DNA of 64,000 nt from positions 18,166,001 to 18,230,000 of the forward strand of contig OZ024756.1 in assembly GCA_964016885.1 (NCBI GenBank), written 5' to 3'. Position 1 is the stretch's first letter. Every line of letters begins with the position of its first letter. Under the pieces are notes generated by a model that worked only from the letters and a program-made list of their open reading frames with translations, had not been told where the DNA came from and did no database searches. The translations under genes were made by a program, and so were the position numbers. Positions 15,820 through 62,766 of the stretch are shown piece after piece. This DNA comes from Eledone cirrhosa. Taxonomy: Eukaryota.

Positions 15820-15883
15820 CTATATATTAAACCTTACTATTTATATATTAAACCTCACTATCTATATATTAAACCTCACTATC
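15820..15883. repeat. Three more units of the 21-bp minisatellite beyond the LINE
   Basis: Same unit and orientation as 8513-13716. Confidence 0.9.
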
Positions 15884-22600: not shown

Positions 22601-25600
22601 ACGTATACACACAGGTGAGAAACCGTTTGCCTGTGACTATTGTGGGAAAAAATTCAATCAGAGCTCCAACCTTATTTCCCATGTGAAAACACATTCAGGT
22701 GTAAAGCCGTACAAATGTGAGTTCTGTCCCCGTGAGTTCTTCTCAACGGCCATGCTGTATCGTCACCGGAGATTACATACAGGGGAAAAACCTAACAAAT
22801 GCGACATATGCCAGATGTGCTTTTCCCGAGCAAACTTCCTCAAGTATCATATGGCGACACACCGTGAAGCGGAGATTTCTTCTGAATCAGCTGTCGAAAT
22901 ACATGATAAAAAAACTGTAAAACCCCTTGAAACTACGGCAGGTTACTTACCTTCTTCTCCTCAGCCACAGTCCCATGTTGAGGAAGACCCTAATGAGATA
23001 GTTGAGGGGAACGATACCCTGGACGAGAGAGAAGTTTTAACTAACTCTTCATATGATGAAATAAAGGACAACAGTTTCAATGCTACCCCATCAAATAATG
23101 CAGAACCTTCAGAAACTGGTACATTAGATCTTGGTACCTATGTCAGCAATGACGGTAATATGTACCTCACTTCTTTGCCAACTTCTACTGTAGAGTCTGA
23201 GAATCCAGCTGATCCAAAGAAATTTGTTGGTTTGACTTCAACGTTACCGACTCAATTGCAATGTAGTGGTTTCCAATGTCCATTCTGTATAAAGTCCTTT
23301 GACCACTCCAGCCACTTAATTAACCACATCATGTCTCACAATGAACAGAAGCATTACTGTTGTAAAGTCTGTTCCAAATCCTTTTTCACTGCACCTGCTC
23401 TCAGACAACATTCTAGAAAACATAGTCGACGTAAACCTTTCAGGTGTGGCTACTGCTCATGCCGATTCTCTCTAAATGTCTTCTTGTTGCTACATTTGAA
23501 GAAACACACTTCGATCAGTGAGTACGTGTGCAATGTATGTTGCTGGGTAACGACCAGCCTTGTCCAGGTGAGGCATCACAAGAAACTCTACACTGGAAGA
23601 CAACATACGTTCAGTGTCAAACATTCTGCAGAGTCTGGTGTCAGTGATGTGGAGAACCAACACACAACACACTCCCCCAACAACAACAACAACAACAACA
23701 ACAACAACTTCACTTCTTCATTGTCTAAAAAGTTTTACCACAGAGAAAATATGGTGGATGATCCCGGCAATAAATTATTTCAGTGTAGTGTATGTTTAGA
23801 ACGCTTTAATAACCCTTCTAGTCTCAGTCAGCATGTTGTAGTGCATAAGAAGAGTGATATATGTAAACAAGAGAATACGGTTCAACCGATAACACTTCTG
23901 CAGGTTCGATCTGGTCACTGGCAACTTAACAAAGGAGGTAGAAAGTTTCAAGGTAATTCATCGGCCTATGTGATATCTTCATCACAACTTGATGGTAACT
24001 CTGTCCAACAGGAGAAAAAGAATGGTGCTAATGGTACTCATTCTAAAGAAGCAGATAGTTTCAACAGCTCCAAGTCTGAAAGATTAATTTCTAACACTTC
24101 ACACAACTGCAGGTCAAATGTTAAACCGCGAGAGGTCACTATAGCAGGGCACAGTTGGTCAACTGGTGACTCTGTATTTACTGAAGAGTCCTCAGCATAC
24201 AAAGGATGCAAAGAAAATACACAAAGTGTGGCTTATAATGCCACAAAACCAAAGGCTAATATAACTTCAAATCAGGTAAAATGTTTGCAAAGGCAGGTAA
24301 ATTTTCAAAATGCATCCAAAGAAAAAGACAGTACAATATCAGAAGATGCTGGGGATAGATCAGGAAATGAACCGAACACTGTTATAAGTCAATCTAAGAC
24401 TCCATCTAATCAAGATGGCAAAACAAGACCAAAATATCCAATAAACTCACCATCAAGTTTAGAAAATAATCGCAAACAACACCAGTGTGAAATATGTGGT
24501 CGTACTTTTGTCCAGGCTTGTCACTTAACTTATCACATACGGACACACACAGGTGAAAGGCCGTATGGCTGTAGACATTGTGGAAAAGCGTTCTTCACGT
24601 CATCCGATCTGAAACGTCACACACGTGTTCATACAGGTGAGAAACCATTCAAATGCAACCATTGTCGTAAAAGATTCACTCAGCGATCAAATTTACTCAT
24701 CCATACTCGCTCTCACACTGGTGACAGACCCTATCGATGTCGTCTATGTCCCAAGAAATTTTCTACTTCTTCCATGTTGGCCAGACACCAACAAACACAC
24801 AACACAACTACCGATCATTCTGAATTCAATTTCTGTTGTCCTGCTTGTCGACAGAAGTTTCCTAACTATTTCAGTCTCACCAACCATCTGAAAACTGCTC
24901 ATCCGAGTTTGGTGAAAAAGCCACCAGAGTACAAGAAACGAAAGAAAAGATCCACTTCTCCTGTATGTGAAAAGTCAGACCCATCATGGCTACCTGTGAA
25001 ATCTGGTACAATCCCTGTTCCTGATGAGTCGTCTGATATAACCACATATTTGTCAGCTACTCTCAGCTGTGCTTTGTGTGAAAGATCCTTCCCAGATAGC
25101 ATTCAGCTTTCTAAACATCAATGTAGCCAGCATTCACTGCAAGAAGACAACCTGAATTGGGCCACGACTATTAAAGCTTTTGACTCTACGGCATCCGTAT
25201 CTGTTTCTCAGATTGATTCATCAAGCAAAATTCCATCTCGGTCAGTGTTCACATCTAATGAAAGTTTCTATAAGAATAAAGGACACGACATAGCTTTGGG
25301 ACCCATGAAAGTAAACACTGGAAATGTTGGTTTACTAGAAGAGCAACCAGCTGATCTACAATCAACAGAGACCAGCAAGGAAACTAACAATCTTCTGTCT
25401 GATAAAGAGCTGGAAAATGTTACAATGGAGGAAAAAGAATGTGACTTGGTAGAGAAAAAATCTAATTTAGTTTTGGTTGAAAATCTGTTACCAGCTACCA
25501 AGACAAACGAGAAAGGACACTCCACGTCGTCTCAATCTACTGTGGCAGGGCATAAGAAATTCTCTGAGGAGAAGTCACCAAACCAGTGTGAGATCTGCTT

Positions 25601-39570: not shown

Positions 39571-39898
39571 GAGTTCTGATTTTCTTTGCCGAGTTCTTTG
39601 TTTTCAGCATGCAGTTCAACAATTTTTGAGGCCAATTTAGTGTGGCCTATCGCTCTAAGTCCATTTATTAACTGAGTAACTGCCTGCTCTGGTTTTTCTG
39701 GGATGTTCCTCTTCCAGAAGATTAGCAGTTTATAGTTCATGTCCCTAGTAGACAGGCCAGCAGCGAAAGCATCAAAAGTGATCCCGCTAATACAGCTTTC
39801 CGAAAGTCCAAGATGAACTGACAACTCTATAATGTCTGGTACAATGGAGGCGAGAAACATCAAGCTACGGCCTGACAACACATTCGGCTGATGCTCAA
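39567..39898 (-). CDS. ZU5-ZU5-UPA-death domain protein (DTHD1/PIDD-like), last coding exon: death domain
   Basis: Acceptor TTCTCTTTCCAG| at 39899. Peptide EHQPNVLSGRSLMFLASIV..LSVHLGLSESCI..KLLIFWKR..LINGLRAIGHTKLA shows the death-domain pattern; TAA at 39569-39567. Confidence 0.85.
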
Positions 39899-39939
39899 CT
39901 GGAAAGAGAAGTGAAATGAAGGTATAAAATAATAATAAT

Positions 39940-40230
39940 AATAGGAGAAAATCTCCAAATATAAAGATCTAGAGATAGAAATAACTCGAATGTGGAAAAT
40001 GAAAACAATATAATAATAATAGGTGCTCCGGGAATGATAAATACATAACCAAACCCCCAGGACTTACAAATATATACAGTGTACAAAAGATAGCACTACT
40101 AGGCACTGCACACATATTACAAAAAGTACTACCAATACAATAGAAACAACATCAGTAAAAACTACACTGCTTACACCCAAGGTGCATAGAGCTGTGCTCG
40201 GTAAAGCAGTAGTGGTACACAATAAAAATA
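39940..40230 (+). mobile_element. R4/Dong-clade LINE 3' fragment (RLE C-terminus)
   Basis: EKISKYKDLEIEITRMWKMKT..IIIGAPGMI..VQKIALLGTAHILQKVL; begins in a (TAA)n tract, the known Dong-type target. Confidence 0.75.
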
Positions 40231-40485
40231 ATCATCATCATTTAATATCTATCTTCCACGCAAGCATGGGTTAGATGGGTTTGTCCCATTTGAGGCAAGT
40301 TTGGTCGGGTGACTGTGGCGTGCTCATATAGGACTGTTTCTGGCTGGTTTTCTATGGCTGGATGCCCTTTCTAACGCCAACCACATTTATAGTGTGTGCT
40401 GGGTGCTTTTTGCCGTGACACCTGCACAACCACTTTACAGTGTGGGTTGGATGTTTTGTGGTATAAATAATAATAATAATAATAA

Positions 40486-41118
40486 TGTTTCTACTTTTTG
40501 CACAAGGCCAGCAATTACCTCAGTGCATTACTGGTGCTTTACTTTATCGACTCCTTAAGGATGAAAGGCAAAGCTAACATTGGTGGGATTTGAACTCAGA
40601 ACGTAAAGGGCCGTAACTATATGCCACAAACATTGTTGCCTGACGGCCTACCGATACTGCCAATCCACCACCTTATAATAATAATAATAATAATGGTTTC
40701 TCATTTAGGCACAAGGCCAGTAATTTTAGGGAAGGGTAAAGTCGATTAAATCAACGCCAGTGTATGACTGGTACTTTACTTTATCGACCTCGTAAGGATG
40801 AAAGGCAAAGCTAAGCTTAGTGGGATTTGAACTCAGAACGTAAAGAGACATAACTCTATGTTGTTAAGCATGTTGTCCAATGCTCTACTAATACTGCCGA
40901 TCCACCACCTTATAATAATAATAATAATAATTGTTTCTACTTTTGGCACAAGGCCAACAATTACCACAATACATTACTGGTACTTTATTTTATCGACCAT
41001 GTAAGGATGAAAGGCAAAGTTAACCTCGACGGGATTTGAACTCAGACTGTAAAGGGACATAACTATGCTAGAAAGCATGGCGTCCAACCCTCTACCAATA
41101 CTGCCAATTCACTGCCTT

Positions 41119-41120
<2 letters not shown>
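40486..41120 (-). mobile_element. Three head-to-tail SINE family A copies separated by (TAA)n
   Basis: Copies at ~40486-40675, ~40695-40912 and ~40931-41120. Confidence 0.8.
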
Positions 41121-41149
<29 letters not shown>

Positions 41150-41261
41150 TAATAACAATTATTAATTTTCCGATTTTCTGAATATCCTGCATATTCCAGG
41201 GTTCTTTGTTGAAGTGGAGGTTTTATAGAACTGTCGTATTCCTTTTGTGAAAGTATACGAC

Positions 41262-41944
41262 CAGCTTGAGATGTAGATTCCAGTTCTTTTGACTCTGCTC
41301 TACATAGCTCTGCTTGACGTAACTCCTCTTGTCGAAGCTCCTCCTGACGTATCGCCTTGATAATTTTTATTTTCTTCCAGAAGCTTTCCACTGCCTCTAC
41401 TGGGACTTCAAATTTAAAAACTGCAGTTATTTTTGACTTCAAATCCTCATCAGTTACATCAAAAGGATTAACATGTATTATTCCTTTTAGCGTTTTTATT
41501 TTTTCCTCGGTAGGTTGTATACAAAATATCGTGTTGTTCTCAGCAAGACCACAATAGTAGGTTAATCTCAAGAAGTCATCAAACTCTTCTTCAGAAAATT
41601 TCACTGAACCACTGACCGATATCGTCCACATCTGCTTGTCCTTCAGTTCAGGTAGAATAATCCGTTGGCTGAATGATCTCTCTTTTAGCTGGTTTTCACT
41701 CGAGGCCCTCCGTAATTTTATCGCTTCTGACGGGATTTCAATGAAGTTCCGTACCTTCCATTTCTTCTCGATAATATCCGTCATCTCCCTCGAATGACAT
41801 GCCACCACTATGTTCCATTGTAGATCTTCAAAGCGAACAAACAGGGCTAACTTTCCAAGTACTACACCTATTTTCTCTTCGATTAAGCGTATACCATCTT
41901 TTAGTTTTCGTGTTGAACCAGATGAAGATTCAGCCACACAGTAC
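41262..41944 (-). CDS. ZU5-ZU5-UPA-death domain protein, coding exon 5 (end of ZU5b, UPA-like region, helical linker)
   Basis: Acceptor TTTTGCAG| at 41945; phase 2 continues SHLS-K-YCVAESS in a long open frame. The donor is uncertain: phase-1 candidates end the exon at 41262 (GCTG|GTCGTA), 41232 or ~41157. Confidence 0.75.
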
Positions 41945-42155
41945 CTGCAAAAGCACCAATTAGAGATTAAACATTAGAGATTCAGCCACACAGTACCTGC
42001 AAATAAGGATTACATTTAGAGAGAGAAGAAAAAGCACCAATTAGAGATTAAACATTAGAACAGAGTTAAAAAATCTACATATCTCCCAACCTGACTTCTT
42101 TACGTAATATAACACACGGTTATCCCAAATCTTGACCAATATTCACAGTAAAAAT

Positions 42156-42487
42156 GGTTTCTTATATAGGCACAAAGCCAGCAATTTGGGGGGGGGGGGG
42201 GTTAAATAGACCCCAGTGCGTGACTGGTACTTTATTTTATCGACCCCATGAGGATGAAAGGCAAAGTTAACCTTGGCGAGATTTGAACTCAGATCATAAA
42301 GGGCTGTAACTCTATGCTGCAAAGCATGGCGTCCGACTCTCTATTGATACTGGCAATACACCGCCCTTTTATTCCCAGTAATAATTGTTTCTACTTTTGG
42401 CACAAGGCCAGCAATTATCCCAGTGTGTGACTGGTATATTATTTTATTGACCCCGAAAGGATGAAAGGCAAAGTTAACCTCGGCAGA
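42156..42487 (-). mobile_element. Two SINE family A copies (second truncated)
   Basis: Same cores as the other family A copies. Confidence 0.75.
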
Positions 42488-44447
42488 GTAATAATATATG
42501 ACAGTTATCCCATAGCTTGACAAATATTTCCAGTAACAATATATCACATACAGTTATCCCATAGCTTGACCAATATTCCCAGTAACAATATATCACATAC
42601 AGTTATCCCATAGCTTGACCAATATTCCCAGTAACAATATATCACATACAGTTATCCCATAGCTTGACCAATATTTCCAGTAACAATATATCACATACAG
42701 TTATCCCATAGCTTGACAAATATTCCCAGTAACAATATATCACATACAGTTATCCCATATCTTGACCAATATTCCCAGTAACAATATATCACATACAGTT
42801 ATCCCATAGCTTGACCAATATTCCCAGTAACAATATATCACATAGAGTTATCCCATAGCTTGACCTATATTCCCAGTAACAATATATCACATACAGTTAT
42901 CCCATAGCTTGACCAATATTCCCAGTAACAATATATCACATACAGTTATTCCATAGCTTGACAAATATTCCCAGTAACAATATATCACATACAGTTATCC
43001 CATAGCTTGACCAATATTCCCAGTAACAATATATCACATACAGTTATCCCATATCTTGACCAATAATCCCAGTAACAATATATCACATACAGTTATCCCA
43101 TAGCTTGACCAATATTCCCAGTAACAATATATCACATACAGTTATCCCATAGCTTGACCAATATTCCCAGTAACAATATATCATACAGTTATCCCATAGC
43201 TTGACCAATATTTCCAGTAACAATATATCACATACAGTTATCCCATAGCTTGACAAATATTCCCAGTAACAATATATCACATACAGTTATCCCATAGCTT
43301 GACCAATATTCCCAGTAACAATATATCACATACAGTTATCCCATAGCTTGACCAATATTCCCAGTAACAATATATCACATACAGTTATCCCATAGCTTGA
43401 CAAATATTCCCAGTAACAATATATCACATACAGTTATCCCATAGCTTGACCAATATTCCCAGTAACAATATATCACATAGAATAATCCCATATCTTGACC
43501 AATATTCCCAGTAACAATATATCACGTACAGTTATCCCATAGCTTGACCAATATTCCCAGTAACAATATATCACATACAGTTATCCCATATCTTGACCAA
43601 TATTCCCAGTAACAATATATCACATACAGTTATCCCATAGCTTGACCAATATTCCCAGTAACAATATATCACATAGATTAATCCCATATCTTGACCAATA
43701 TTCCCAGTAACAATATATCACGTACAGTTATCCCATAGCTTGACCAATATTCCCAGTAACAATATATCACATACAGTTATCCCATATCTTGACCAATATT
43801 CCCAGTAACAATATATCACATAGAATAATCCCATATCTTGACCAATATTCCCAGTAACAATATATCACATACAGTTATCCCATATCTTGACCAATATTCC
43901 CAGTAACAATATATCACATACAGTTATCCCATAGCTTGACAAATATTCCCAGTAACAATATATCACATACAGTTATCCCATAGCTTGACCAATATTGCCA
44001 GTAACAATATATCACATACAGTTATCCCATATCTTGACCAATATTCCCAGTAACAATATATCACATAGAATAATCCCATATCTTGACCAATATTCCCAGT
44101 AACAATATATCACATACAGTTATCCCATATCTTGACCAATATTCCCAGTAACAATATATCACATACAGTTATCCCATAGCTTGACAAATATTCCCAGTAA
44201 CAATATATCACATACAGTTATCCCATAGCTTGACCAATATTGCCAGTAACAATATATCACATACAGTTATCCCATATCTTGACCAATATTCCCAGTAACA
44301 ATATATCACATACAGTTATCCCATAGCTTGACCAATATTCCCAGTAACAATATATCACATACAGTTATCCCATATCTTGACCAATATTCCCAGTAACAAT
44401 ATATCACGTACAGTTATCCCATAGCTTGACCAATATTCTCAATAACA
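42488..44447. repeat. 49-bp minisatellite CAGTTATCCCATAGCTTGACCAATATTCCCAGTAACAATATATCACATA (~40 copies)
   Basis: Directly visible. One diverged unit lies at ~42113-42155, on the far side of two SINEs. Confidence 0.97.
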
Positions 44448-44978
44448 GCTACCCACTCCCTACCCACCACTGCCACAGCAATGTCATCTTTGCATGAATG
44501 GCCCTGTAACAACTCCTGGGGGAGTCATTGGGGCGCCGTATTGACATACAGGGTTTCCAGGGCATTTTAAAATCTGGCAGAGCCCCTGTCCTCTCTAGGT
44601 CTGAACACAGCAGATTTCTTCCAGAGAAGGATGGAGAGAGTGAGAGCATCTAAGTGAGAAAGAGATATGGAAGAAGAATTGACCCCAGTTTGGAAGAAGA
44701 ATTGACCTAGATTGGTACTTTATATATATCATCATCACCGTTTTACGTCCATTCTTCCACGCTAGCATGGGTTAGACGGGTTGTCCTGTTGTGGGCAGTG
44801 TCTGGTCGGCTGACCATGCTTTGCTCATACGGGAACTGATTCTGGCTTGATTTCTACAGCTGGATGCCCTTCCTAACACCAACCTCATTTACAGTGAGTG
44901 CTGGGTGCTTTTTTTCCATGGCACCTACACGTCCACTTTACAGTGTGGGCTGGTTGCTTTTTTCAATATGTCAATAAA

Positions 44979-45698
44979 CGCTTTAGCATTTGAACTGGCT
45001 GAATCTGGCCAGAATTCTCTCGCCTCTTTCTGTTCAAACTGACAGCAACTGGCCGCTCATGCAGATGTTAAGGTATTGTTCTCAAAATAAATAACAAAAT
45101 GTAGTTTCGATATAATGTGAGATAAAGCCTTTACCATGAAAATAAAATAGTAAATATAGAGTAATGTAAATGCCATGTGAGATATTATGTAAGATAATTA
45201 TGTAAGGTAAAGCCTTTACTGTGAAAATATAATAGTAAATATAGAGTAATGTAAATGCTATGTGAGATAATTATGTGAGGTAAAGCCTTTACGGTGAAAA
45301 TATAATAGTAAATATAGAGTAATGTAAATGCTATGTGAGATAATTATGTGAGGTAAAGCCTTTACGGTGAAAATATAACAGTAAATATAGATTAATGTAA
45401 ATGTTATGTGAGATATTATGAAAGGTAAAGCCTTTACTGTGAAAATACAGTAATAAATGTAGAGTAATGTAAATACTATGTGAGATATGTGAGATAAAGC
45501 CTTTACTGTGAAAATACAATAGTAAATATAGAGTAATGTAAATACTATGTGAGATAATTATGTGAGGTAAAGCCTTTACGGTGAAAATATAATAGTAAAT
45601 ATAGATTAATGTAAATGCTATGTGAGATAATTATGTGAGGTAAAGCCTTTACAGTGAAAATATAGTAGTAAATATAGAGTAATGTAAATGCTAAAGGC
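44979..45698. mobile_element. piggyBac-type MITE with an internal ~73-bp tandem amplification (~8 copies)
   Basis: Termini CGCTTTAGCATTT / AAATGCTAAAGGC-TTAA match the 29084 and 62767 family; 45115-45690 repeats the subterminal segment. Confidence 0.8.
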
Positions 45699-45708
45699 TT
45701 AAATTTAC

Positions 45709-46010
45709 TTTGATAAATGTGACACATCGAACGATATCGTATTCTTGGTGCATCGGATGTTATTGTCTATGAGATTCCAGTCACCATCTGGTAAATTCTT
45801 CACCAGTACACCTATATTTTCCTGATCTTTCTTACTTTGTCGGGTATCAGCCTTTGGCAAGGGCAATTTAATAGTAACAGGGCGTCGGAATTTATGATTC
45901 TGGTCGTCACATAATACCTCTACGATTTCTGAACAATCCAGAATGTCCTCACATCGGTATGAGTAAATGTCTTGGCAGTAGTTGAGTATATCTTGTGCTA
46001 ATGGCATCAT
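45709..46010 (-). CDS. ZU5-ZU5-UPA-death domain protein, coding exon 4 (ZU5b)
   Basis: Acceptor TTTCTTATTACAG|, donor AAA|GTAAAT; 302 nt, phase 0 to 2. Peptide ..SEIVEV..KFRRPVTIKLPLP..GDWNLI..ISFDVSHLS is a typical ZU5 motif set. Confidence 0.88.
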
Positions 46011-46045
46011 CTGTAATAAGAAACACCGTCAGAAGAAATCTACTG

Positions 46046-46363
46046 TCATTATCATCATCATCATCATCACGACCACCATCTCTATCAACACTACCATCAC
46101 CATCATCATCATCTCCATCATCACTACCATCATCATTATCATCATCATCACTATCACCACCATCATCACCATCATCATCTTCACCACCACCACCATCATC
46201 ATCGCCACCATCATCATCATCATCTCCATCATCACCATAATCATCAACATCACCACCACCACCATCACAGTCACTATCATCATCCTCACCATCACCACTA
46301 CCATCATCATCCCCATCACCACTATCACCACCACCACCACCACCACCGCCACCACCACCATCA
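46046..46363. repeat. (CAT/CAC)n degenerate trinucleotide tract
   Basis: Directly visible; intronic. Confidence 0.9.
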
Positions 46364-46838
46364 CAGACTGTATCAGTACTCAAGCGGAGCTATTGACCCT
46401 TAGGATGGGCAACAGGGACCTGCATCTTGCTTACATATGTTCCCACGTCTTTGACATGACAGAAGAGTCCTCCTGACACCTTGATTGCCAGGATTTCAAC
46501 AGCTAGATATCCTTTACAGAGTGTACTGGGTGTGTCTATTGTGTGTGGGTGTGCAGAGAGAGGGGGTAGGGAGTGAAAAGAGAGAGAGAGAGATAAAGAC
46601 CAGTACAGGTCTGTTTATCAATCTTTCAAGGATGAAAGGCAAAGTTGACTTTCGTGAGATTTGCACTCAGAAATTGCAAAGAACCAAAACGAATACCAAA
46701 TACCATAAAACATTCTATCTAATGTTCTAACATTGCCAAAATTATCTATCTATCTTCCTTCCTTCCTTCCTTCCTTCCTTCCTTCCTTCCTTCCTTCCTC
46801 CCTCCCTCCCTCCCGTCCTTCCTTCCTTCCTTCCTTCC

Positions 46839-46874
<36 letters not shown>

Positions 46875-47623
46875 TCTCCCTCCCTCGCTCCCTCCGTTCT
46901 TTCTTTCTTTCTTTCTTTCTTTCGTCAGATGGGTTGTCCTTGCGAGAGACAAGTCTGGCCAGGGTTTTTACAGCTGGATGCCCTTCCTAACACCAACCAC
47001 ATTTACTATGTGGGACAGGATGGCACCATTATGAGTGGGGACATGCCAGTTGGCTGCGGCAAACCCTTCTCATAGTTTGAGACCCGCACCCACAATTATT
47101 TGTTAAATAATAATGGAAATTATTGTGTAAAGTGCTGAGGTGCACTACAACTAATCGTAAAAGGTAGCCAAAAGTGCATGTATAGTACACAGAATAATGT
47201 ACAAATGTCAGGAAAGTGAACAGTGTTAAGTCATGATACATACACACCACGCATACATGCATACATACACACATACATATATACACACACACACGTGTGT
47301 GGTGGGGAATACCAGGTGTAGTGATGGCGAATTTTGAGAAGCATGGAAGTTTTGAAGGATGCAGTGTCTCGACAGCTAACAACTGATGCAGATAGTTTGG
47401 TTCCATGCTTCAGCAACTCTGGGTGTGAAAAATTGTTTTCCAAAGTCATGGGAGTTGTACTGTTTTCTGATTTTGTAAGTGTGTCCATCAAATTCAAATG
47501 AGGAAGACATGGACACCTGACCTAGCAATGCCCACAACAGGACAACTCGTCTAACCCATGCTAGCTAGCATGGAAAAATGGTCGTAAAATGATGATGTTG
47601 AGGATAGAAAGAAGCTATCTTAC

Positions 47624-47815
47624 CTTCAATGAACACTTTAACGTCTCACTGAGACTTGTTCGTGGACATCGCACACTGATGTAGCGGGAAAGGTGAGAAT
47701 AATAGAGGCAACCAGTGGGGGAAAGCTCAAAATTCTCCTGTTTGGGTTCACAGATCACTGTTACTAATCCAAACTTCTCCAGATTTATAACAGCAAAGTA
47801 ATTATTGTCAGATAT
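47624..47815 (-). CDS. ZU5-ZU5-UPA-death domain protein, coding exon 3 (missed by the ORF track)
   Basis: Acceptor TTCTCCTCTTACAG|, donor AAG|GTAAGA; 192 nt, phase 0-0, no stops: ISDNNYFAVINLEKFGLVTVICEPKQENFELSPTGCLYYSHLSRYISVRCPRTSLSETLKCSLK. Confidence 0.85.
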
Positions 47816-48321
47816 CTGTAAGAGGAGAACAGAAAAAAAAATATATATATATCATCATCATCAATTAACGTCTATCTTCCACACTTGCATGGGTTAGATG
47901 GGTACCATTTAGAGGCAAGTTAGGTCGGGTCACCGTGTCTCATATAGGGGAGTTTCTGGTCGGTTTTCTATCGCTGGATGCCCTTCCTAACACCAACCAT
48001 AAAATTATAAGTTTGAAGAACAGGCAAATAACATTTACCTAATTTTTCTTCTTAGTCCGGATAAATTAACTAAATAAATAATCAAATATATGGAGCTAAG
48101 TTTAAAATGTAAGTTTGAAGAAATAATAGATAAAGGTTTACCAATATTCTTCTAGCCGTGGCTGTCAACAGTTTCACTTGTGCTATGTGGAAATGTGTAA
48201 CTGCTGCATTGTCCATGCGGCTTCAAGCTTATCATGGGACTCCCTCAGTTAGGACCGATTTTTTTTTCCAAAGTGATCACTGCCAGTAACAAATTCGAAA
48301 AGGGTTGAAATTATCACGTGG

Positions 48322-48950
48322 CTAGCATCTCTTGTGTAACCAAGATCTGCATTGTGTACATTTTATAGAATTTATGCCAGTTCCTTTTCTGCATATCGAA
48401 CATGGCCATTTCCCTGACGGAATCAGAGTTTTGTCCTCTTTCCTACTTATCAACACTTTTGTCTTAGCTAGGTTCATTCTCAGTCTTCTTGCTTCCAACT
48501 GCTGTTTCCATAGCCAGAATTTATTCACCAGCTCCTCTACTGATTCTGCTAGAAGAACCAGATCATCAGCATAGAGAAGTTCTCATGGGCAGCCAGTCTT
48601 AAACTCCTCTGTTATGGCTTGGAGGACTATAATGAACAAGAGTGGGCTGAGGACCGAACCCTGATGTACTCCTACTTGTATCTGGAATTCCTCACTAAAC
48701 TCCATTCCTACTCTCACTTTACTGACAGCACCTCTGTACATAGCTTGCACTGTCCTCACAAGCCATTCATCTACACCTACTTTCCTTAGGGACCACCAGA
48801 TGACAGATCAGGGTACTCTATCAAAGGCCTTCTCTAGGTCAACAAAAGCTAAGTATAGTGGCTTATTCTTCTCTAAGAACCTCTCTTGTAGTTGTCTCAC
48901 TAAGAAGAGGGCTTCTGTTGTACTTTTCCCAGGCACAAAACCAAACTGCA
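48322..48950 (-). mobile_element. RTE LINE RT fragment (diverged subfamily)
   Basis: Colinear with 14810-15430 (FVDLEKAFDRVP, GVHQGSVLSPLLF, LYADD, WPCSICRKG). Confidence 0.85.
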
Positions 48951-49238
48951 TCTTACAATTCTAAATTTTTCCGTTATACACAAAGAATATTTCTGTTATA
49001 CACAAAGAACATATATATGTGTGTATTTGTATTTCCATGCAGACGCACATATGCTCATGTGTGAATGTATGTTTACGTACTATTACGTGTATGCGTGAGT
49101 TTCTGTATGTTTATGTATTTGGATATTTATATATTTTTTCCCCTCAATTTATGCACATTATTTTATTTCAGCCTCACTTTCATTTATCCAAAACTCTGTT
49201 TTCAAATCCATATCACTATTCCATATTAAATAAATAAA

Positions 49239-49305
49239 TATTTCTTCTGATGAATGAAGACAGACATAAGTATCTGCCTTCAAGAAACCATTGGTAAATG
49301 AAATA
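49239..49305 (+). ncRNA. Type I hammerhead ribozyme
   Basis: Stem I TATTTC-TT / AA(T)GAAATA; CTGATGA 49247-53; stem II TGAAG.CAGA / TCTG.CTTCA; GAAA 49284-87; stem III ACCA-T-TGGT; GUA triplet with cleavage after 49296. The 10.1-11.1 pair is an A.A mismatch. Confidence 0.75.
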
Positions 49306-49350
49306 ATTATCTTATGTTGTTTATTACATAACTATATATATATACAAATA

Positions 49351-49685
49351 TGGAGGCACATGGCTTAGTGGTTAGAGCATTGGCCTTGCAATCGAAAGGT
49401 TGTGAGTTCAATTCTCAGACCGGGTGATGTGTTGTTTCCTTGAGCAAGACACTTTATTTCACATTGCTCCAGTTTACTCAGCTGTAGAAATGAGATGATA
49501 GGGACTGGGTTCCCTATCATTCCACTGTAAGGAGGTACCATGGCAAAAAAGCACCCAGCACTCACTGTAAATGAGGTTGGTGTTAGGAAGGGCATCCAGC
49601 TGTAGAAATCAAGCCAGAATCAGTTCCCGTCCCACCCTTGCAAGCAGGGAAAAGCGGACGTAAAATGAAATGAAATGAAATGATG
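49351..49685 (+). mobile_element. Composite SINE: family B tRNA head fused to the RTE 3' end
   Basis: GGAGGCACATGGCTTAGTGGTTAGAGC head, GAGTTCAATTCTC B-box, and a 3' part matching the RTE tail. Confidence 0.8.
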
Positions 49686-49697
49686 AAATATATATAC

Positions 49698-49730
<33 letters not shown>

Positions 49731-49733
<3 letters not shown>

Positions 49734-49843
49734 ATAATAATAAATTTGAATACTAAAATCCAAAGAGGGCTCGATAAGGATAAATATATATCAAATATAT
49801 AAGAACCGTAGAGCAAATATTTAATCTGTTATTTTAATAAATA
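49731..49843 (-). mobile_element. Hairpin-plus-tail element family 2, internally deleted
   Basis: Reverse complement of 52100-52190 plus one arm; sits in (TA)n. Confidence 0.65.
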
Positions 49844-50271
49844 TATATATCATCATCACCGGGAGAGATGACCCCTTAGCCTTTGTCAAGGCAGAATTCT
49901 AGGAGAAGGAAAACTCTGATATAACACCTGCAACCCTGATGGTATCCAATGATGTTGACTTGTTCTTCTTTTTGGTAAATATCATCTTGGTTAAGAGAGT
50001 GGGACTGGCTTTGTGCAGTGCCTTTGCTCACTATAAAAGCTTCACGGCACAGGCATTGCTTTATATCTGGAGATCTCTCTGCACTTGTCGTCACATGGTA
50101 CCATGGGCCCAGCACTATGTGTCAATAATTGTCACAGGTGTAGTGTTTGTACCAGAGTTTTCAAGTCGCTGGCTGGACTAAAAAGTCACACTCGTTCAGC
50201 GCATCGGTAGGGGTTCTCCTACATGGATATAAAGTAGTGGCCGTACTCGAAAACAAGTTGGCAGCCACCAT

Positions 50272-50648
50272 ATCATCATCATCGTTTAACGTCCATCTTC
50301 CACGCTTGCATGGGTTTGGACCATTTAGGTCACCAGCGATAACTATGTAGTCACTGTCAGTTATTTGGGAGGTAGTAGTGAGCATTAACGTCTCATAGAA
50401 TCTGTCTTTTCTAACGCCAGGCAGTCCGGATTGTGGTGCATATGCAGATATTATCATCACAGTAGTTCTATTGAGGACAAGTCTTATTTTAATTATTCTG
50501 TCGTTCACTCTATTTACGTCTATTATCTTATCTGCCCACTTTTCTGCTACCATGATTCCTACTCCACCCAGCCCATTGTCCTTTCCCACCCAGAAAAGCT
50601 TATAGCATCGTTCTTTACCCACAATGAATCTAGCAGACCCACCCCTCC
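50272..50648 (-). mobile_element. RTE AP-endonuclease fragment joined directly to an RTE 3' tail
   Basis: [37 protein letters not shown], followed by the terminal ~50 bp and (GAT)n. Confidence 0.8.
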
Positions 50649-50650
50649 AA

Positions 50651-50687
<37 letters not shown>

Positions 50688-50694
50688 TTATATA

Positions 50695-50750
<56 letters not shown>

Positions 50751-50819
50751 CATATATATATACACACAGATGATCTAACTCTAAATACTAGAGTTAGATG
50801 ATCTGTTAGATCATCATAC

Positions 50820-51975
50820 TAGACTAAAGTTCTAGTATGTAGAAAGGAAAATAGGGCACAGGTGTCCTCTGGGAAATGGCCATGCTCAGTGTGTAGGAAA
50901 GGAGTAGGTAGCAATTCCATTTTAAGTCCCAAATGCAAACTATGGCTACATAAAAGATGTAGTGGGATCACAGGCAAGCTGTCTAAGAATGTAGATTTTA
51001 TATGTGGCCGATGCCCAGGTGCAATAAGTAGCAAGTGCCACAGGATACTAGCTCCTTCTATTGCCAAGATGGTTCTATAGAAATAGGGGACACTTTCCGT
51101 TACCTGGGTGACAAAATCCGCAATGGTGGAGGGTGCTTTGAAAGTACAGTAGCCAGAGTTAGAACGGGATGGAAAAAGTTCAGAGAGCTTATACCGCTGT
51201 TGGCCACAAAAGGTTTCTTTCTAAAAATGAAAGGCAGATTGTGTGATGCTTGTATACGAACAGCAATGTTACATGACAGTGAGACATGGGCATTGTGTGC
51301 AGAGGACCTGCACAGACTGGAAAGGAACGAAGCATACAAGCTCCGTTGGATGTGTAATATTAATATACATGAACAGCAAAACATAAATGTACTAAGTGAG
51401 AAATTAAGAATAACAGGGATCAGATGATGTTTACTTGAGAGAAGATTACGTTGTTATGGTCACGTGATGTGCATGAAAGACGACAGCTGTATAAAAATGT
51501 ATGCAGGGAGAAACCCTTCTTTATCAGCAGAGGAAGCAGCTCCCTAAACTTCTTCCAACCCGTCCTTATTCTGGAAACTATGGCCTCGGTGCACCCTCCT
51601 CCCTTGCTAATCTGATCACCTAGGTAATGGAAGCTATCAACCACCTCTATAGGTCCTACCCACATTTGAAAAATGTGACTATCACAGAACATTGGCAAAC
51701 CTCCTACTCTCAGCCTCCCTGCGTGCTAAGTACACCTGACATTTAGCTTCTCTCTTAGCGGCTGTGTATCCTTCTCTACTCCCGCCATTTTTCCAAGCCT
51801 TCCATGCCAGTCTTTTGTCTCTAATGGCCCTATCTACCGTGCTGTTCCACCACCAGGTCACTCTCTGTCTGGTTGGAGCTCTGCTCCAGCCACAAGTTTC
51901 TTCAGTAGCCTGAAGTAAGTTGTCATGTAAGAAATGCCAGTTATCATCTATGTCGTACGATTTTAACTCATCTAA
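50820..51975. mobile_element. Scrambled RTE fragments: + (50820-51500, PHD-like finger/C-term) and - (51500-51975)
   Basis: ORFs 50862, 51035 (+) and 51420 (-) are homologous to the 14333-15244 protein. Confidence 0.8.
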
Positions 51976-52028
<53 letters not shown>

Positions 52029-52029
52029 T

Positions 52030-52190
52030 TATTTATTAAAATAACACATTAAAGTTTAAGCAAAGACTTTGCTTAAACTTTAATCTGTTATTTTAATAAA
52101 TATTTGCTCTACGGTTCTTATATATCTGATATATATTTATCCTTATCGAGCCCTCTGTGGATTTTAGTCTTCAAATTTATTATTATTACT
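52030..52190 (+). mobile_element. Hairpin-plus-tail element family 2
   Basis: 36-bp arms 52030-52065 / 52067-52102 (1 mismatch), then a ~88-bp tail; TA repeats on both sides. Confidence 0.7.
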
Positions 52191-52309
52191 ATATATATAT
52201 ATATATATATGTTTATGTAAGTAAACCTCATTTTGAGATTCCATGGGAGAATCTTGCTCAGCCTATGAACTTCTCAGCCAACCCTTATAAAAGGGAAAAA
52301 AAGAATTAC

Positions 52310-52649
52310 CTGCATGTCAGTTTCCACATTGATCCAATCCTCATTTTTAGAGTAACGAACAAGAACATGTATTCCAAAATAATGGTAGTTTTTCTCAGTG
52401 TAAGGCACCCAGATTAAGAGGCCTTTCTTCAAGGTGTACGTACATGTGGAAGTGAAAAAAAATATCTCACTGATTAAGTTCTGTGCGGGCTTTAAAGGCG
52501 GAGCAACGTTTTCCCTGTTGGACGGAGAGATAATTTCACACCATACGTACTCCTTCTTTTTGAACACTCCTGCAGGAACTATTAGTTTCGCTTCTAGAGG
52601 CAGGTCAAATGTTTCCGCTGTACTACCCACGGTGATTTTTGCAATGAAA
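52310..52649 (-). CDS. ZU5-ZU5-UPA-death domain protein, coding exon 2 (ZU5a)
   Basis: Acceptor CTCTCCTTCCAATTTGTAG|, donor CAG|GTAATT; 340 nt, phase 2 to 0. Peptide AKLIVPAGVF..PPLKPAQNLISEIFFF..LLIWVPY..VLVRYSKNEDW fits a ZU5 pattern. Confidence 0.85.
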
Positions 52650-52736
52650 CTACAAATTGGAAGGAGAGAGCAAAGCATATTATGTATATATTCATGTATT
52701 TTACGCATTGGTGTTTGAATATAAATAAATAAATCA

Positions 52737-56254: not shown

Positions 56255-57790
56255 ATAGACATCTGATGCGCATGGTAGTGAGACATGGGCAGCAACTACA
56301 GAGGATATGCGACGGCTGGAGAGAAATGAAACAAGCATGTTCCGTTGAATGTGTAATGTCAATGTTTGTGAACGACCAAGCATAGATGAGATGAGAGAGA
56401 AACTGTGCATAAGAGGGATAAGTTGTAGTATGCGAGAGAGAAGACTGCAATAGTATAGACATGTGATGCGCATGGAGGATGACTGCTGGGTAAAGAAGTG
56501 CCAAGAAATCCCTGTAGAAGGAAGACCACGAAAAACATGGGTGGAGGTGGTGAGAGCAGACCTCAGATTGCTGAAGTTCACGGAGGAGATGACGAAGGAC
56601 CGTGACAAGTGGAGAGATGCTGTGCTGAATAGGACCCGTCCCACCCTTGCAATCAGGGAAAAGTGGATGTAAAATGATGATGATGATGATATATATATAT
56701 TCTATACCCTAAATGCAAACTATGGGTACATAAAAGATGTAGTGCAATCACAGGCAAGTTGTCTAAGAATGTAGATTTTATATGTGACCGATGCTCAGGT
56801 GCAGTAAGTAGCAAGTGCCCACTAGATACTATCTCCTTCAACTGCCCAGATGGTTCTATAGAAATAGTAGACACTTTCTGTTACCTGGGTGATAAAATCA
56901 GCAGTAGAGGAGGGTGTTCTGAAAGTACAGAAGCCAGAGTTAGAACGGGATGGAAAAAGTTCAGAGAGCTTATACCGCTGTTGGCCACAAGGGGTTTCTC
57001 TCTAAAAATGGAAGGCAGATTGTATGATGCTTGTATACAAACAGCAATTTTACATGGCAGTGAGACATGGGATTGTGTGCAGAGGAACTGTGCAGATTGG
57101 AAAGGAACGAAGCATGCTCCGTAGGATGTGTAATAGTAATATACACGAACGGCAAAACATGAACGAACTAAGTGAGAAATTAGGAATAAGAGGGATCAGA
57201 TGCAGTTTACTTGAGAGGAGAATATGTTGGTATGGTCATGTGATGTGCATGAAAGATGACAGCTGTATAAAAAAGTGCAGGGCGATTAAAATTTATGGAA
57301 GTTATGGAGTAACTAGACCCAGAAAAACCTGGATCGAGACCTTTGGCGCTACGCAGTAATACAGAAGAATTGCCTTCCCTTACGTACAAAGTTATACCTA
57401 CAGTCAGTAGGCACTTTTTAACCAAATATACACCCAACCCACTAACCTTACTCCATTCTCCCACTCCCACCCACACCACCCTTTCTCTATAAAGTTATGT
57501 TGGTACCACAGAATATCTAGTCTACACTAAAGTGGTCATGTAGGTGTCACGACAAAAAGCATCCAGTCCATACTGTAAAGTGGTTGTGTAGGAGACATGG
57601 TAAAAAGCTCTCAGTCCACGCTGTAAATGTGGTTGGTATTAGGAAGGGCATGCAGCCATAGAAAACCTGCCAGATACAGTTCTATGTGAGCGAGACACGG
57701 TCACCCGACCAATCTTGCCTCAAGTGGGACAATTCCTGTCTAACCCATGCTAGCGTGGAAGATAGATGTTAAACGATGATGATGATGATA
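56255..57790 (+). mobile_element. Two tandem RTE 3' fragments (56255-56690 and 56700-57790), each ending in (GAT)n
   Basis: GRPRKTW motif, PHD-like finger and GWKKFREL segments; the second copy is colinear with the reverse complement of 13717-14860. Confidence 0.85.
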
Positions 57791-57819
57791 TAATAATAAT
57801 AAAAAGGACGATTTGTATA

Positions 57820-58158
57820 GGAGGCACATGGCTTAGTGGTTAAAGCATTGGCCTTGCAATCAAAAGGTTGTGAGTTCAATTCTCAGACCGGGTGATGTGT
57901 TGTTTCCTTGAGCAAGAAACTTTATTTCACATTGCTCCAGTTTACTCAGCTGTAGAAATGAGATGATAGGGACTGGGGTCCATATCATTCCACTGCAAAG
58001 TGGTCGTGGAGGTGCCACGGGAAAAAAGCACCCAGCACTCACTGTAAATGAGGTTGGTGTTAGGAAGGGCATCCAGCTGTAGAAATCAAGCCAGAATCAG
58101 TTCCTGTCCCACCCTTGCAAGCAGGGAAAAGCGGACGTAAAATGATGATGATGATGAT
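57820..58158 (+). mobile_element. Composite SINE: family B tRNA head fused to the RTE 3' end
   Basis: Third near-identical copy. Confidence 0.8.
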
Positions 58159-58181
58159 GTTATGTTTTCATTACGTTTATT

Positions 58182-58272
58182 GAGTAGTGACGCGTGTTTC
58201 GCTATTGATCAGCTCAGGGTTTGATCTGTATCGATCTAGCCCAACTCTGGAATCAAAAGCTCGTCAGACCTC
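58182..58272 (-). ncRNA. Type I hammerhead ribozyme with canonical core and long stem II
   Basis: Minus strand: GAGGT-CTGACGA(58267-61)-GCTTTTGAT..60-nt hairpin..ATCAATAGC-GAAA(58200-197)-CACGCG-TC-ACTACTC-AATAAA. G10.1-C11.1 is intact; GUC triplet with cleavage at 58189/58188. Confidence 0.8.
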
Positions 58273-58634
58273 TGTTGTGGTTATGACAGATATATATATA
58301 ATCATCATCATCATCGTTTAACGTCCATTTTCCACGCTAGCATGGGTTAGACAGTTTTGTTCTATTTGATGCGGGAATGGTCAGGAGACCGTGTCTCACT
58401 CATACAGAAGTGTCTCTGGCAGGTTTCCTATGGCTGCATGCCCTTCCTAACACCAACCACCTTTGCAGTGTGGACTGGGAGCCTTTTTACCATGTCTCCT
58501 ACACGACAACTTACAGTGTGGACTGGGTGCTTTTTGTTGTGTCATCGACACAGTGGACGGAAATGGGAGGATAGGGTAGGGTGTGTGGGGTGGGGTGGGG
58601 TGTAATTTGGGTTAAGATGTGCCTACTGACTGTC

Positions 58635-59325
58635 GTAACTGTTTATAATTTTTTTATTTCATAATATTTTTCCTTTCTTTTCAGGAATTATATGAACTAG
58701 TCCTGGGAAATTAATTATGGAAAAATACACCACTGAGCAATGCATCTAAGTTGTGAAATTCTTCTACCAAAATCAGGGGTTGATAATTCAGACCCAGAGA
58801 GCATATCGGTGACACTATCGAGTGAGAGATGCTCCTAGGCCTGATACGTTGTTCCAGCAGGATGGAGCAACTGCTCATTCTGCAAGAGAGACAATGCAGT
58901 TGCTATGGCAGTGCTTTGGAGAGAGAATAATCTCCCATTACAGCAATGTCAACTGGTCATCGCGTTCCCCAGACTTGACTAGCCCTGACTTCTTCTTATA
59001 GGAGTACCTGAAGGAGAGGGTTTATATCAACAAACCGGAGAGACTCTGGAGCAACTAATTGAAGGAGAACATCAATAGAGAAATAAGGGAAGTGGTACCT
59101 GAAACCCTTGCAGCTGTTATGGAGCACGGTTGTGTGAAGCCAAAAATGGCCACCATTTGAAAGATGTAATTTGTCATAAGTAATGTAGAGGCATGACAAG
59201 GATTGATGAGTGTAAAATAATTTCCATTATGTCCTTTAAGTTGTATCAAAATTTCATACATCAATCTGTACAGTTCAGGAAGTTAATAAAAACTAAAACC
59301 CCTGTGTGACTTTTGGGCCACCCTG
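58635..59325 (+). mobile_element. Internally deleted Tc1/mariner (rosa, DD41D) relic
   Basis: MEKYTTEQ.. N-terminus at ~58717; FQQDGATAH..WSSRSPDLTSPDFFL* with 41 residues between the D residues; right end ..GGGCCACCCTG-TA. Left TIR not found. Confidence 0.8.
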
Positions 59326-59399
59326 TACATACATATAAATAAAAGATATCCATGCATGCACTCATACACATGCACACACACACATCCACACAGACATAC

Positions 59400-59588
59400 A
59401 TGGAGGGTTGTCATTCTCACAGAGATAGTGCTCTTCTCAGTACATGTGCAGTACCAGTCAAAACAATTTTTGCACCTCTTGCAGAGAGGGTAAACCAGGG
59501 ATCATTCTCAAATGCTGTTCTGTTCCTTTCTTGATCATTCCAAGTGCTCCCACAATCACAGGTATTGTAATGGCCTTGAGGTGCCACA

Positions 59589-59592
<4 letters not shown>
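59400..59592 (-). mobile_element. R4/Dong-clade LINE 3' fragment
   Basis: TIPVIVGALGMIKKG..KIVLTGTAHVLRRALSL* (with a frameshift), adjacent to (TAA)n. Confidence 0.7.
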
Positions 59593-59625
<33 letters not shown>

Positions 59626-59806
59626 GGATTAGCCGTATCGGTAGAAGGTCGGACGCCATGCTTTGCAGCATAGATTTATGGCCCTTTACAGTCTGAGTTC
59701 CAATCCCGCCGAGGTTAACTTTGCCTTTCATCCTTACGGGGTCGATAAAATAAAATACCAGTAATGCACTGTGGTAATTGCTGGCCTTGTGCCAAAAGTA
59801 GAAACA

Positions 59807-59860
<54 letters not shown>
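59626..59860 (+). mobile_element. SINE family A with long (TAT)n tail
   Basis: Same family as 6533-6720. Confidence 0.8.
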
Positions 59861-60436
59861 TCATACTTAATTAGTAAAGTGTAATTATACTTAATTAGTA
59901 GTGTAATTATACTTAATTAGTAAAGTCTAATTGTACTTAATTAGTAAAGTGTAATTGTACTTAATTATTAAAGTGTTAATTATACTAAACGAGATGAAGG
60001 TGACGTCTTCTCTCTCTTTCTGTCACACACTCTCTTTCTCTCTCTAAATAAATGACATTCCCTTTTTTCTCTCTTTATTCATGAACATATCTCTTGCTTG
60101 CATCTCCCCGTCTCTATATAAGGTGAATGTGATGGATGGATGAACAGACAGACACCATTCTTATTATAATACAGTGTACCCCAGCATTAGCTTTTTTTGT
60201 GACAATATATTTTTTTTCACGCTTTTTAATGCTAAGCTATTATTAACAATATACCGTGTTAGCTGGCCTATATTTTACATTATGATTTGACGTTTATAGG
60301 CAATTTTATGGACCACATTCTATATTTGCGGTTTTTCCCTCTTCACAGGTGCTCTAGGAATGTAAACCCCGCGAATACCGGGGAACAACTGTATAGATTA
60401 GTAGGTTGTCAATTATTTAATTAGTGAATTACTTAC

Positions 60437-60510
60437 TTTTTTCGTAGATGTGAAGCTTCTGTACTGTTCTCTGAAGATCTGCGACTCAGGCCTTTAGATT
60501 TAGTTGGCAT
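60437..60510 (-). CDS. ZU5-ZU5-UPA-death domain protein, probable first coding exon (MPTKSKGLSRRSSENSTEASHLRK)
   Basis: Acceptor TTGCAG| at 60518, AAAATG start at 60510, consensus donor |GTAAGT at 60436. 74 coding nt; phase 2 matches the exon starting at 52649. Confidence 0.65.
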
Positions 60511-61398
60511 TTTGGTACTGCAATTAATAGCAAAAGGAATAAGATTTCGAAAGTATATAAATATTTCAATTTTGGAATTAGGATTTAATGGAAAACGAAA
60601 ATCCCTCTGTCGTTCGAAGCGATTTGGTGTCAGGAAGGGCATCTGGCTGTAAAACACTGCCTCAAAACATTCCTGTCCAACCCATACCAGCATGGAAAAG
60701 TTAACATAAAAATTATGAAAGATGATATACATCTTTTAAAACAGAAAGTTATAGACCTGGGTGGGTTTCATCATCATCATCATTATCATCCCTGTAGCAA
60801 GGGTTGTATAGTATATATATATATATATATATATATACGACCGTGACCTCTGGCGATGACACACGACCGTGACCTCTGGCGTCACGCAGTAATACAGAGT
60901 ACCCGACCTCCCATGGGTACAAGCTGAAGCATATAGACAATATGCCCCCACACCCTCCCACTGCAAGGTGGTCGTGGGGGCGCCACGGCAAAAAAGCACC
61001 CAGCCCACACTGTATAGTGGACGTGTAGGTGCCACGGAAAAAAGCACCCAGCACTCACTGTAAATGAGGTTGGTGTTAGGAAGGGCATCCAGCTGTAGAA
61101 ATCAAGCCAGAATCAGTTCCTGTATGAGCAAGGCATGGTCAGCCAACCAGACACTGCCCACAACAGGACAACCCGTCTAACCCATGCTAGCATGGAAGAA
61201 CGGACGTAAAACGGTGATGATGATGATATATGGGATAACAAGTTTTCGTTATAGGTAATCCAGTTAAAGGTAATCCAGTTGAAGTACTCCGCGTCGTGGA
61301 TAGTTTTAACGTACGGCTTTGTTTGACTCGACAAGATGTTTCCATAGTTAGGCAGCAAGTTTGCGGTAATTACTATGCAGGTTATACTTGGAGTAATA

Positions 61399-61664
61399 AT
61401 AGTTAAAGAAAGAAGAGTAACATGGTTGGCTGTACAATAAGGGCTTTATTTAAAGTACTGACAATTGTTTCGTTGATCAGATGTGTCTAGAGTTCGCTAA
61501 TCGCTTTAGGCTGCGTCAATCGATCTCCAATACATTATTTACAACTGGTCCACACATCAGAGCACGTAGATATGAAAATAATTCACTCGAGGCAAGACTT
61601 GTCAGTACTTTAAATAAAGCCCTTATTGTACAGCCAACCATGTTACTCTTCTTTCTTTAACTAT
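61399..61664 (-). mobile_element. Element with perfect 66-bp inverted arms enclosing a hammerhead (Penelope inverted-pLTR-like)
   Basis: Arms 61399-61464 / 61599-61664 are exact reverse complements; the arm boundary lies within a few nt of the hammerhead cleavage site. Confidence 0.75.
61455..61565 (-). ncRNA. Type I hammerhead ribozyme, one core change (CUGAUGU)
   Basis: Minus strand: GTGCT-CTGATGT-GTGGACCAG..CTGATCAAC-GAAA-CAATTG-TC-AGTAC..AATAAA. Palindromic stem III ACAATTGT; cleavage at 61460/61459. Confidence 0.65.
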
Positions 61665-61682
61665 ATATATATATTTATATAT

Positions 61683-61876
61683 ATAGGAAAAAGTATGACC
61701 CCGACGGCAGAGCTCAAGCCGTTTCGACGGGTATTTCTAGACTGAAATAGCCATCGAAACGGCTTGAGCTCTGCCGTCGGGGTCATACTTTTTCCTATTA
61801 CCCACTCTACTACTCTAAGTATTGAGTACTCTCGTGCGTTATGGTCCATCTGGTTCCTTACCACAATTTCTTCGTT
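61683..61876 (+). mobile_element. Hairpin-plus-tail element family 1, complete copy
   Basis: 55-bp arms 61683-61737 / 61744-61798 (2 mismatches), 6-nt loop TAGACT, same tail as the 6133 copy. Confidence 0.8.
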
Positions 61877-61959
61877 TTATATATATATATATAGAGAGAG
61901 AGAGAGAAGGGAAGTAGGAGATAAAAAATTAAGCATCTTATGATACGTAAAGACAATAT

Positions 61960-62014
61960 AGTTCTTGTCTGATGACCCTGTGATAAACAGGCGTAACTTC
62001 AGAGTAACAAGACT
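61960..62014 (+). ncRNA. Type I hammerhead ribozyme, one core change (GUAA for GAAA)
   Basis: Stem I TCTTGT/ACAAGA; CTGATGA 61969-75; stem II CCTGT-GATAA-ACAGG; GTAA 61993-96; stem III ACT-TCAG-AGT; GUA triplet. AATAAA and (TA)n follow. Confidence 0.65.
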
Positions 62015-62092
62015 CACTATTTAGCCTTAATAAAATAAATATATATATATATATATGTGTGTGTGTCTCAATAGCCATTTGTATATAAATAA

Positions 62093-62277
62093 TTGTTTCT
62101 ACTTTTGGCACAAGGCCAGCAATTATCCAATGAATTACTGGTACTTTATTTTATCGACCTCGTAAGGATGAAAGGCAAAGTTAACCTCGGCGGGATTTGA
62201 ACTCAGAATGGCAAGGGCCGTAACTCTACGCGTCAAAGCATGGCGTCCGACCCTCTACCGATACTGCCAATTCACCA
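62093..62277 (-). mobile_element. SINE family A
   Basis: Near-identical to 18462-18642. Confidence 0.8.
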
Positions 62278-62766
62278 TGTATGTGTGAGCTTGTGAATAT
62301 GAGTGTGATGGTAGATAGACAGATAAATGCATAGATAGATAGATAGAGTGATAAACAAAGGCATGAATGAGAGAAAGAAAACAAAGAAGAAAAGAAAGAG
62401 AGAAAGAAAAGAAAGAAATGGTCAGCAATTGTTCTTTTCACTAAATTCTCTTGACACTTATATCTGCAAAAATAACATAAGATGGAGGAAGGGGGAAATC
62501 TTGGGGGGAGGGGGTTTAAATACATGTCAAGTTTGTTTTTATATTGCTTGTGGCATTAACAGTGTTGTAGAGGATTTTACCATTATTTACTCTATATATA
62601 CTATTGTATTTTCATGGTAAATTCTTTATCTAACATATTATCTCACAAAATATTGAATCTATGAGATTTTGATGTTATTTGTGTTGAGAACAATTACCTT
62701 AACATCAGTATAAATGGTTTGAACAGAATGAGGTGAGAGAATTCTGGCTGGATATAGCCGGTTTAA

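Follow-up and report, generated by a model that had tools for sequence, protein, structure and literature searches.

The hammerhead motif at 58182–58272 is one member of a high-copy octopod repeat and not a unique intronic element. With a probability of roughly 0.7, it is read here as part of a decayed solo copy of this repeat, likely a Penelope-like pLTR or a non-autonomous derivative, which is predicted to lack activity in the intron. As a host-regulatory ribozyme, it is most likely of no consequence. The kind of hammerhead is already known, and only the long stem II and the altered core letter of the family look new: Penelope-type hammerheads are extended to an octopod, with stems II of 60 to 82 nt that are missed by standard models, and with a majority U4C exchange. 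A natural family of this abundance whose core is damped would also serve as an in vivo test of whether spread needs ribozyme cleavage.

Hammerhead motif and host gene

The window, i.e. the whole 64-kb stretch of DNA that was analysed, carries on its minus strand a type I hammerhead motif with all core letters in the order CUGANGA, GAAA and NUH (Table 1). The complete core described in an earlier note on this DNA (CUGACGA, GAAA, GUC and the G10.1-C11.1 pair) was located at 58267–58189; its designation as canonical holds for this copy, whereas the family majority carries C at position 4. A9 directly precedes G10.1, without an extra nucleotide. Stem I comprises only 3 contiguous pairs, a qualification missing from the earlier note, and its outer pair is G/C, A/U or G/U across the repeat family, as judged from column shares. 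The unusually long stem II of ~60 nt noted before was recovered at 60 nt and predicted to form an 18-bp irregular hairpin (z −2.96; equally good fold in 1 of 200 shuffles), and the family-majority letters at 58243, 58222 and 58217, compared by hand, kept or added stem II pairs. As a SECIS element, stem II was rejected by eye, its helix spacing being unsuitable. Stem III (58197–58190) consists of 2 bp, A15.1 and C15.2 with G16.2 and U16.1, and a 4-nt loop, followed by C17 at 58189. The earlier note called it short and near-palindromic; a second qualification missing there is that ACACGCGU of this copy shows two A.C mismatches in the dimer register. The AAUAAA was likewise found where it had been reported; it also occurs in the loose ends of the family and behind the motif of the relic at 61401–61662, and belongs to the repeat instead of serving as a signal specific to the host.

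Table 1 Positions of the hammerhead parts, the repeat copy and neighbouring features on the window
Feature	Position	Strand	Basis or remark
Five downstream coding exons, host gene	39591–52690	−	tblastn with Octopus homolog P0002
Displaced 3′ end of repeat copy and T/ATT-rich flank	57791–57816	−	11 nt match family loose ends exactly
SINE (tRNA-like head, (GAT)n tail)	57820–58158	+	tRNA match 57829–57886; interrupts the repeat copy in its 3′ tail
Repeat-copy body with hammerhead	58159–58290	−	24 listed pieces cover 117–128 nt, with 12–23 differences each
AAUAAA	58176–58181	−	7 nt past the cut site
GAAA, stem III and GUC cleavage triplet	58189–58200	−	GAAA 58200–58197; predicted cut 58189/58188
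Stem II, 60 nt	58201–58260	−	G10.1 (58260) pairs with C11.1 (58201)
Core box C3–A9, CUGACGA	58261–58267	−	C3 = 58267, A9 = 58261; position 4 = 58266
Stem I, 5′ arm	58268–58270	−	3 contiguous pairs with 58188–58186
(TA)n run, 5′ boundary of repeat copy	58291–58300		AT-rich flank
Second SINE copy	58301–58540	−	Inverted relative to the SINE at 57820–58158; 77–82% identity over 106 and 55 nt
Likely first coding exon, host ZU5/Death-domain gene	60437–60517	−	AG / ATG / GT context only; not aligned by tblastn
Related, distinct hammerhead relic	61401–61662	−	A9U core (C3 61560), 82-nt stem II, AAUU palindromic stem III, AAUAAA

Two computational checks had been proposed earlier, a search with Rfam hammerhead models and a descriptor search. 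The Rfam models gave no match in the whole window at the gathering score, nor in 57500–62500 up to E 10; the 60-nt stem II likely defeats these models. The descriptor search of the window returned the motif at 58182–58272 as its single site, and of 300 resampled windows the strict descriptor matched none, looser forms 1 and 2. Coincidental resemblance to a short consensus, for which the silence of the Rfam models could be cited, is left with negligible probability: it is refuted by the resampled-window scan together with the read-level family evidence, in which palindrome and stem are retained family-wide. A pattern scan of metagenome contigs gave 0 matches, and a 17-letter pattern gave 2 matches in viral contigs, both lacking the core upstream, which is at chance level.

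The five downstream exons of the host gene, whose protein has relatives with ZU5 and Death domains, share the minus strand with the motif, in line with the earlier assignment; the more precise placement, 2.2 kb into the first coding intron, is no more than plausible, with the upstream exon set by context. The only basis for exon 60517–60437 is its splice-site and ATG context, which leaves the intronic position in sense orientation likely but short of proven. For the largest host exon, a word-indexed protein search came back empty and an HMMER search was successful.

Elsewhere on the window, a single-exon C2H2 zinc-finger ORF of 2,345 codons was seen at 19602–26639 (+), residues 290–790 of which are 75% identical to an Octopus vulgaris protein; together with the host exons that align to an Octopus protein, this marks the source as an octopod. 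A tandem array of ~5 kb with a 21-nt unit and strong GC skew occupies 8600–13780. Broken LINE reverse-transcriptase fragments lie at 14100–15820, 48300–52030 and 56450–57360, and have a (GAT)n 3′ tail in common with the SINEs. Within (TA)n, a near-perfect hairpin element was found at 61684–61798; flank-like sequences recur at about 3000, 5400 and 6200, so the element is probably a MITE-like repeat.

Repeat family and boundaries of the copy

Four public runs were aligned onto 58130–58330 at 80% likeness, with the SINE tail included. This gave 6128, 6263 and 6000 aligned contigs for the three runs of one sample, and 3236 reads for another sample. Over stem II, depths sum to 170,000–208,000, as against values of 2–16 in 23 of the 24 pieces listed, depth being distinct from copy number; the family size is estimated at the order of 10,000 copies, a figure that the aligned depth itself does not give. 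No second copy of the repeat at 58159–58290 was found in the 64-kb window.

The loose ends of the family continue at 57816–57806, beyond the SINE at 57820–58158, and the SINE was therefore inserted within the tail of the repeat copy as a later event. On the other side, a contig of depth 498 (piece 6) extends 47 nt past 58285 with sequence unmatched on the stretch, so that the copy at 58159–58290 is likely 5′-truncated. The two inverted SINEs (57820–58158 and 58301–58540) are predicted to pair in the pre-mRNA as a long duplex that holds the motif within its loop, which would make a possible substrate for A-to-I editing.

Five joints were listed, of which 4 switch strand, 1 is a skip and 0 are tandem (15 joints of X4 were excluded at masked letters). 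The loose ends listed carry an identical T-rich 7-nt word at either end of the family. This word could mark the junction between ~147-nt units in tandem instead of a target site, and its presence in the loose-end consensus speaks for a dispersed non-LTR retrozyme monomer, in which case a tandem transcript would be cut to monomers and spread via circular RNA. Retrozymes of this kind are characterised by units of 150–450 bp in head-to-tail order, every one bearing a hammerhead, and by linear and circular RNA of unit length. A rod-like fold and the commonness of monomers among retrozymes fit as well, and the available part of 10.64898/2026.07.22.740005 describes an apparent derivation of retrozymes from pLTRs, which brings this origin close to a Penelope-type one. 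A retrozyme is nevertheless only a minor possibility, considering the single copy in the window, the 0 of 5 listed joints in tandem (with the X4 exclusion given above), the depth-498 contig running 47 nt upstream into unmatched sequence, and helix sizes unlike the canonical ones of invertebrate retrozymes. In the accessible sections of PMC7229834 and 10.64898/2026.07.22.740005, animal non-LTR retrozymes resemble the octopod repeat in being short, non-coding and high-copy, with a type I hammerhead and many solo monomers, but have tandem arrays, circular RNA and canonical helix sizes, whereas the helix sizes of the octopod repeat are non-canonical. The same portion of the preprint ties retrozymes to pLTRs and gives cleavage in 1 of 9 dimers; octopus is unmentioned in the accessible sections of PMC7229834.

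A SINE-like element mobilised by another retrotransposon, e.g. the RTE-type LINE of the window, would carry the hammerhead as a passenger. No Penelope ORF was tied to the repeat in the scan of the window, and the SINEs around it carry the same (GAT)n tail as the LINE; both points agree with such an element. The 3′ end of the repeat itself, however, lacks a (GAT)n tail, and inversions and a palindromic stem III are Penelope-type traits, so that this origin is quite unlikely.

Probable Penelope-type origin and decay of the copy

The tie to Penelope-type, dimer-dependent hammerheads that had been drawn before received support from the short stem I, the AT-rich targets, the inversions and the palindrome in stem III; the G10.1-C11.1 pair and solo, truncated copies dispersed in large numbers were also present. 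Three palindromic stem III loops favour the dimer type: GCGC where the family has G at 58195 (83% of depth, giving a perfect palindrome), GUAC in a loose end backed by 20 contigs, and AAUU in the motif at 61401–61662. The strand-switching joints, the 64-nt inversion described below and the (TA)n and ATT flanks support, by analogy, a Penelope-type structure. Simple motif patterns run over the six frames of the window revealed no RT or GIY-YIG gene connected with the family, and because no linked ORF was found, membership among the Penelope elements is likely, short of proof.

In the proposed course of events, two adjacent copies in the source element would pair their palindromic stems III and be cut at the GUC, a cleavage that may be weak or helped by the protein of the element. 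Reverse transcription, primed at an AT-rich target, would then insert a 5′-truncated end piece, the tail of which was later split by the SINE. CpG decay would have broken the palindrome and probably turned the family C4 into the canonical U4.

Compared to the family majority (79–98% support), six differences were counted among the rows listed (58166, 58195, 58217, 58222, 58243 and 58266), 4 of them CpG-type changes. Position 58160 (98% change) was left out of the count because longer SINE tails account for it, and positions near 50% (58238, 58275, 58184, 58186) were taken as subfamily differences, not decay. The single change at 58195 breaks the palindrome of this copy, and its in-register homoduplex has a predicted −2.5 kcal/mol. 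At core position 4 (58266), C makes up 79% of depth (X1, 34497 of 43535; X4, 120 of 182 reads and 142 of 301 reads). G5A reaches 7% of depth, compared to 3–11% at seven of eight listed CpG sites and 2–3% at three non-CpG sites, and is thus as frequent as expected for a CpG at C4-G5. The share agreeing with the window is 21% at 58266 and 12–21% at the other CpG changes; given this resemblance and the majority C4, the canonical U4 of the copy is probably a product of CpG decay. A true U4 subfamily is also present (loose end, 18 contigs), phase being unreadable from the variant table.

Predicted activity and comparison with known hammerheads

With stem I open, the three stems around the core (3 bp, 18 bp and 2 bp) are formable. 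In the minimum-energy fold, the core is paired with the cleavage site, and forcing the hammerhead fold costs 8.8–9.6 kcal/mol over the ensemble in four contexts, in a model that has no tertiary contacts and no positive control. A hand-built dimer came to −39.1 as against −51.8 for two monomers, under the same limits of the model.

Co-transcriptional cutting of the host pre-mRNA, which the earlier note had suggested, is not supported for this decayed member of a high-copy repeat. A copy that cuts during transcription, alone or in trans with a family transcript, would be compatible with the sense orientation and with core letters that are all canonical, every one of them intact in this copy, which is also the counterpoint to an inert relic; there are many possible genomic partners, and one Penelope-type hammerhead has gained activity with protein. 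It is nonetheless very unlikely, as the inactive fold is favoured by about 9 kcal/mol, stem I has 3 bp, the palindrome is broken and the differences resemble neutral CpG decay; moreover, RNA reads ending at the cut are absent from the results available in PMC11167929. By these predictions, the motif is likely an inert relic that does nothing to the host transcript. A broader combination, in which individual members of a family of ~10,000 octopod copies with a damped C4 core and a 60-nt rod-like stem II acquire the canonical U4 by CpG decay, some intronic copies cut pre-mRNA in trans or helped by protein, and the long-stem design is common to a second family in the same gene, is unlikely when taken jointly.

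The motif at 61460–61560 had been proposed as dimer partner. It lies on the same strand at a distance of 3.2 kb and is detectably related (alignment score 39 compared to a maximum of 30 in 500 shuffles), but a dimeric ribozyme formed by both in the same pre-mRNA is extremely improbable: the hetero-duplex of stems III has three central mismatches (+1.3 kcal/mol compared to −6.4 for the self-pairing of that motif), the partner carries U at core position 9, and its 3′ half is occupied by a perfect 64-nt inverted repeat. This motif is a second relic and no partner. The inverted copy of its 3′ end has its arms at 61401–61464 and 61599–61662.

The conserved intronic hammerheads of amniotes, a group mentioned in PMC6765202, form a further comparison. 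Hammerheads of this class are single-copy and conserved, with a stable monomeric fold. The octopod motif differs from them as a high-copy repeat with CpG-type differences and an unstable predicted fold, and has its likely sense-strand intronic position in common with them. As far as the accessible parts of PMC6765202 and PMC13725137 go, a "long helix II" is one of 6–8 bp.

The accessible part of PMC4209133 (Cervera and De la Pena 2014) describes type I hammerheads in metazoan Penelope-like pLTRs, with short helix I, palindromic stem III and mostly solo copies; some pairs lie on opposite strands, and single motifs gave no cleavage. Its mollusc examples, from Lottia and Crassostrea, have a helix II of 6–8 bp and an extra nucleotide past position 9. 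The octopod motif agrees with the metazoan pLTR hammerheads in its type, short stem I, G10.1-C11.1 pair, palindromic stem III, massive solo copies and AU-rich 3′ side, but differs in its stem II (60 nt, ~18 bp, versus 6–8 bp), in lacking the extra nucleotide between 9 and 10.1, in the majority C4, and in that no linked ORF was found in the window scan. Inverted truncated copies and microsatellite targets of Penelope-type elements are described in excerpts of PMC8557442. For Poseidon of Anolis (PAc), the available text of PMC11167929 (Frangieh et al. 2024) gives ATT targets and a protein-assisted hammerhead; catalytic mutants still inserted in vitro, and none of the RNA reads ended at the cut site. 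The octopod repeat resembles PAc in its AT-rich/ATT target and a fixed 3′ end shortly past the ribozyme, but has no ORF start in stem II. Insertion of PAc independent of ribozyme cleavage is consistent with amplification of a C4 core.

In the portion of PMC3088659 (Perreault et al. 2011) available, U4C is cited as a rare viroid variant with lower in vitro activity and retained infectivity, whereas it is the majority state of the high-copy octopod repeat. Penelope-like elements of O. vulgaris are treated in PMC13282606, the accessible part of which leaves ribozymes unmentioned. No published account of a 60-nt stem II or a majority C4 in an octopod family was found in the search; Lunse et al. 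on dimeric PLE hammerheads lies outside it and may include long stems or C4.

Two observations concern related end pieces. In the relic at 61401–61662, the inverted arm begins at 61464, exactly midway in the palindrome of stem III, and this start point hints at a template switch at the palindrome. A further hammerhead-like relic at 7296–7392 (+) has a 5-bp stem I, an altered core box, a 6-bp stem II, a palindromic UUAA stem III and a GUA triplet; it is preceded by an inverted copy of its own 3′ part, is flanked by (TA)n, and is likely another Penelope-type end piece.
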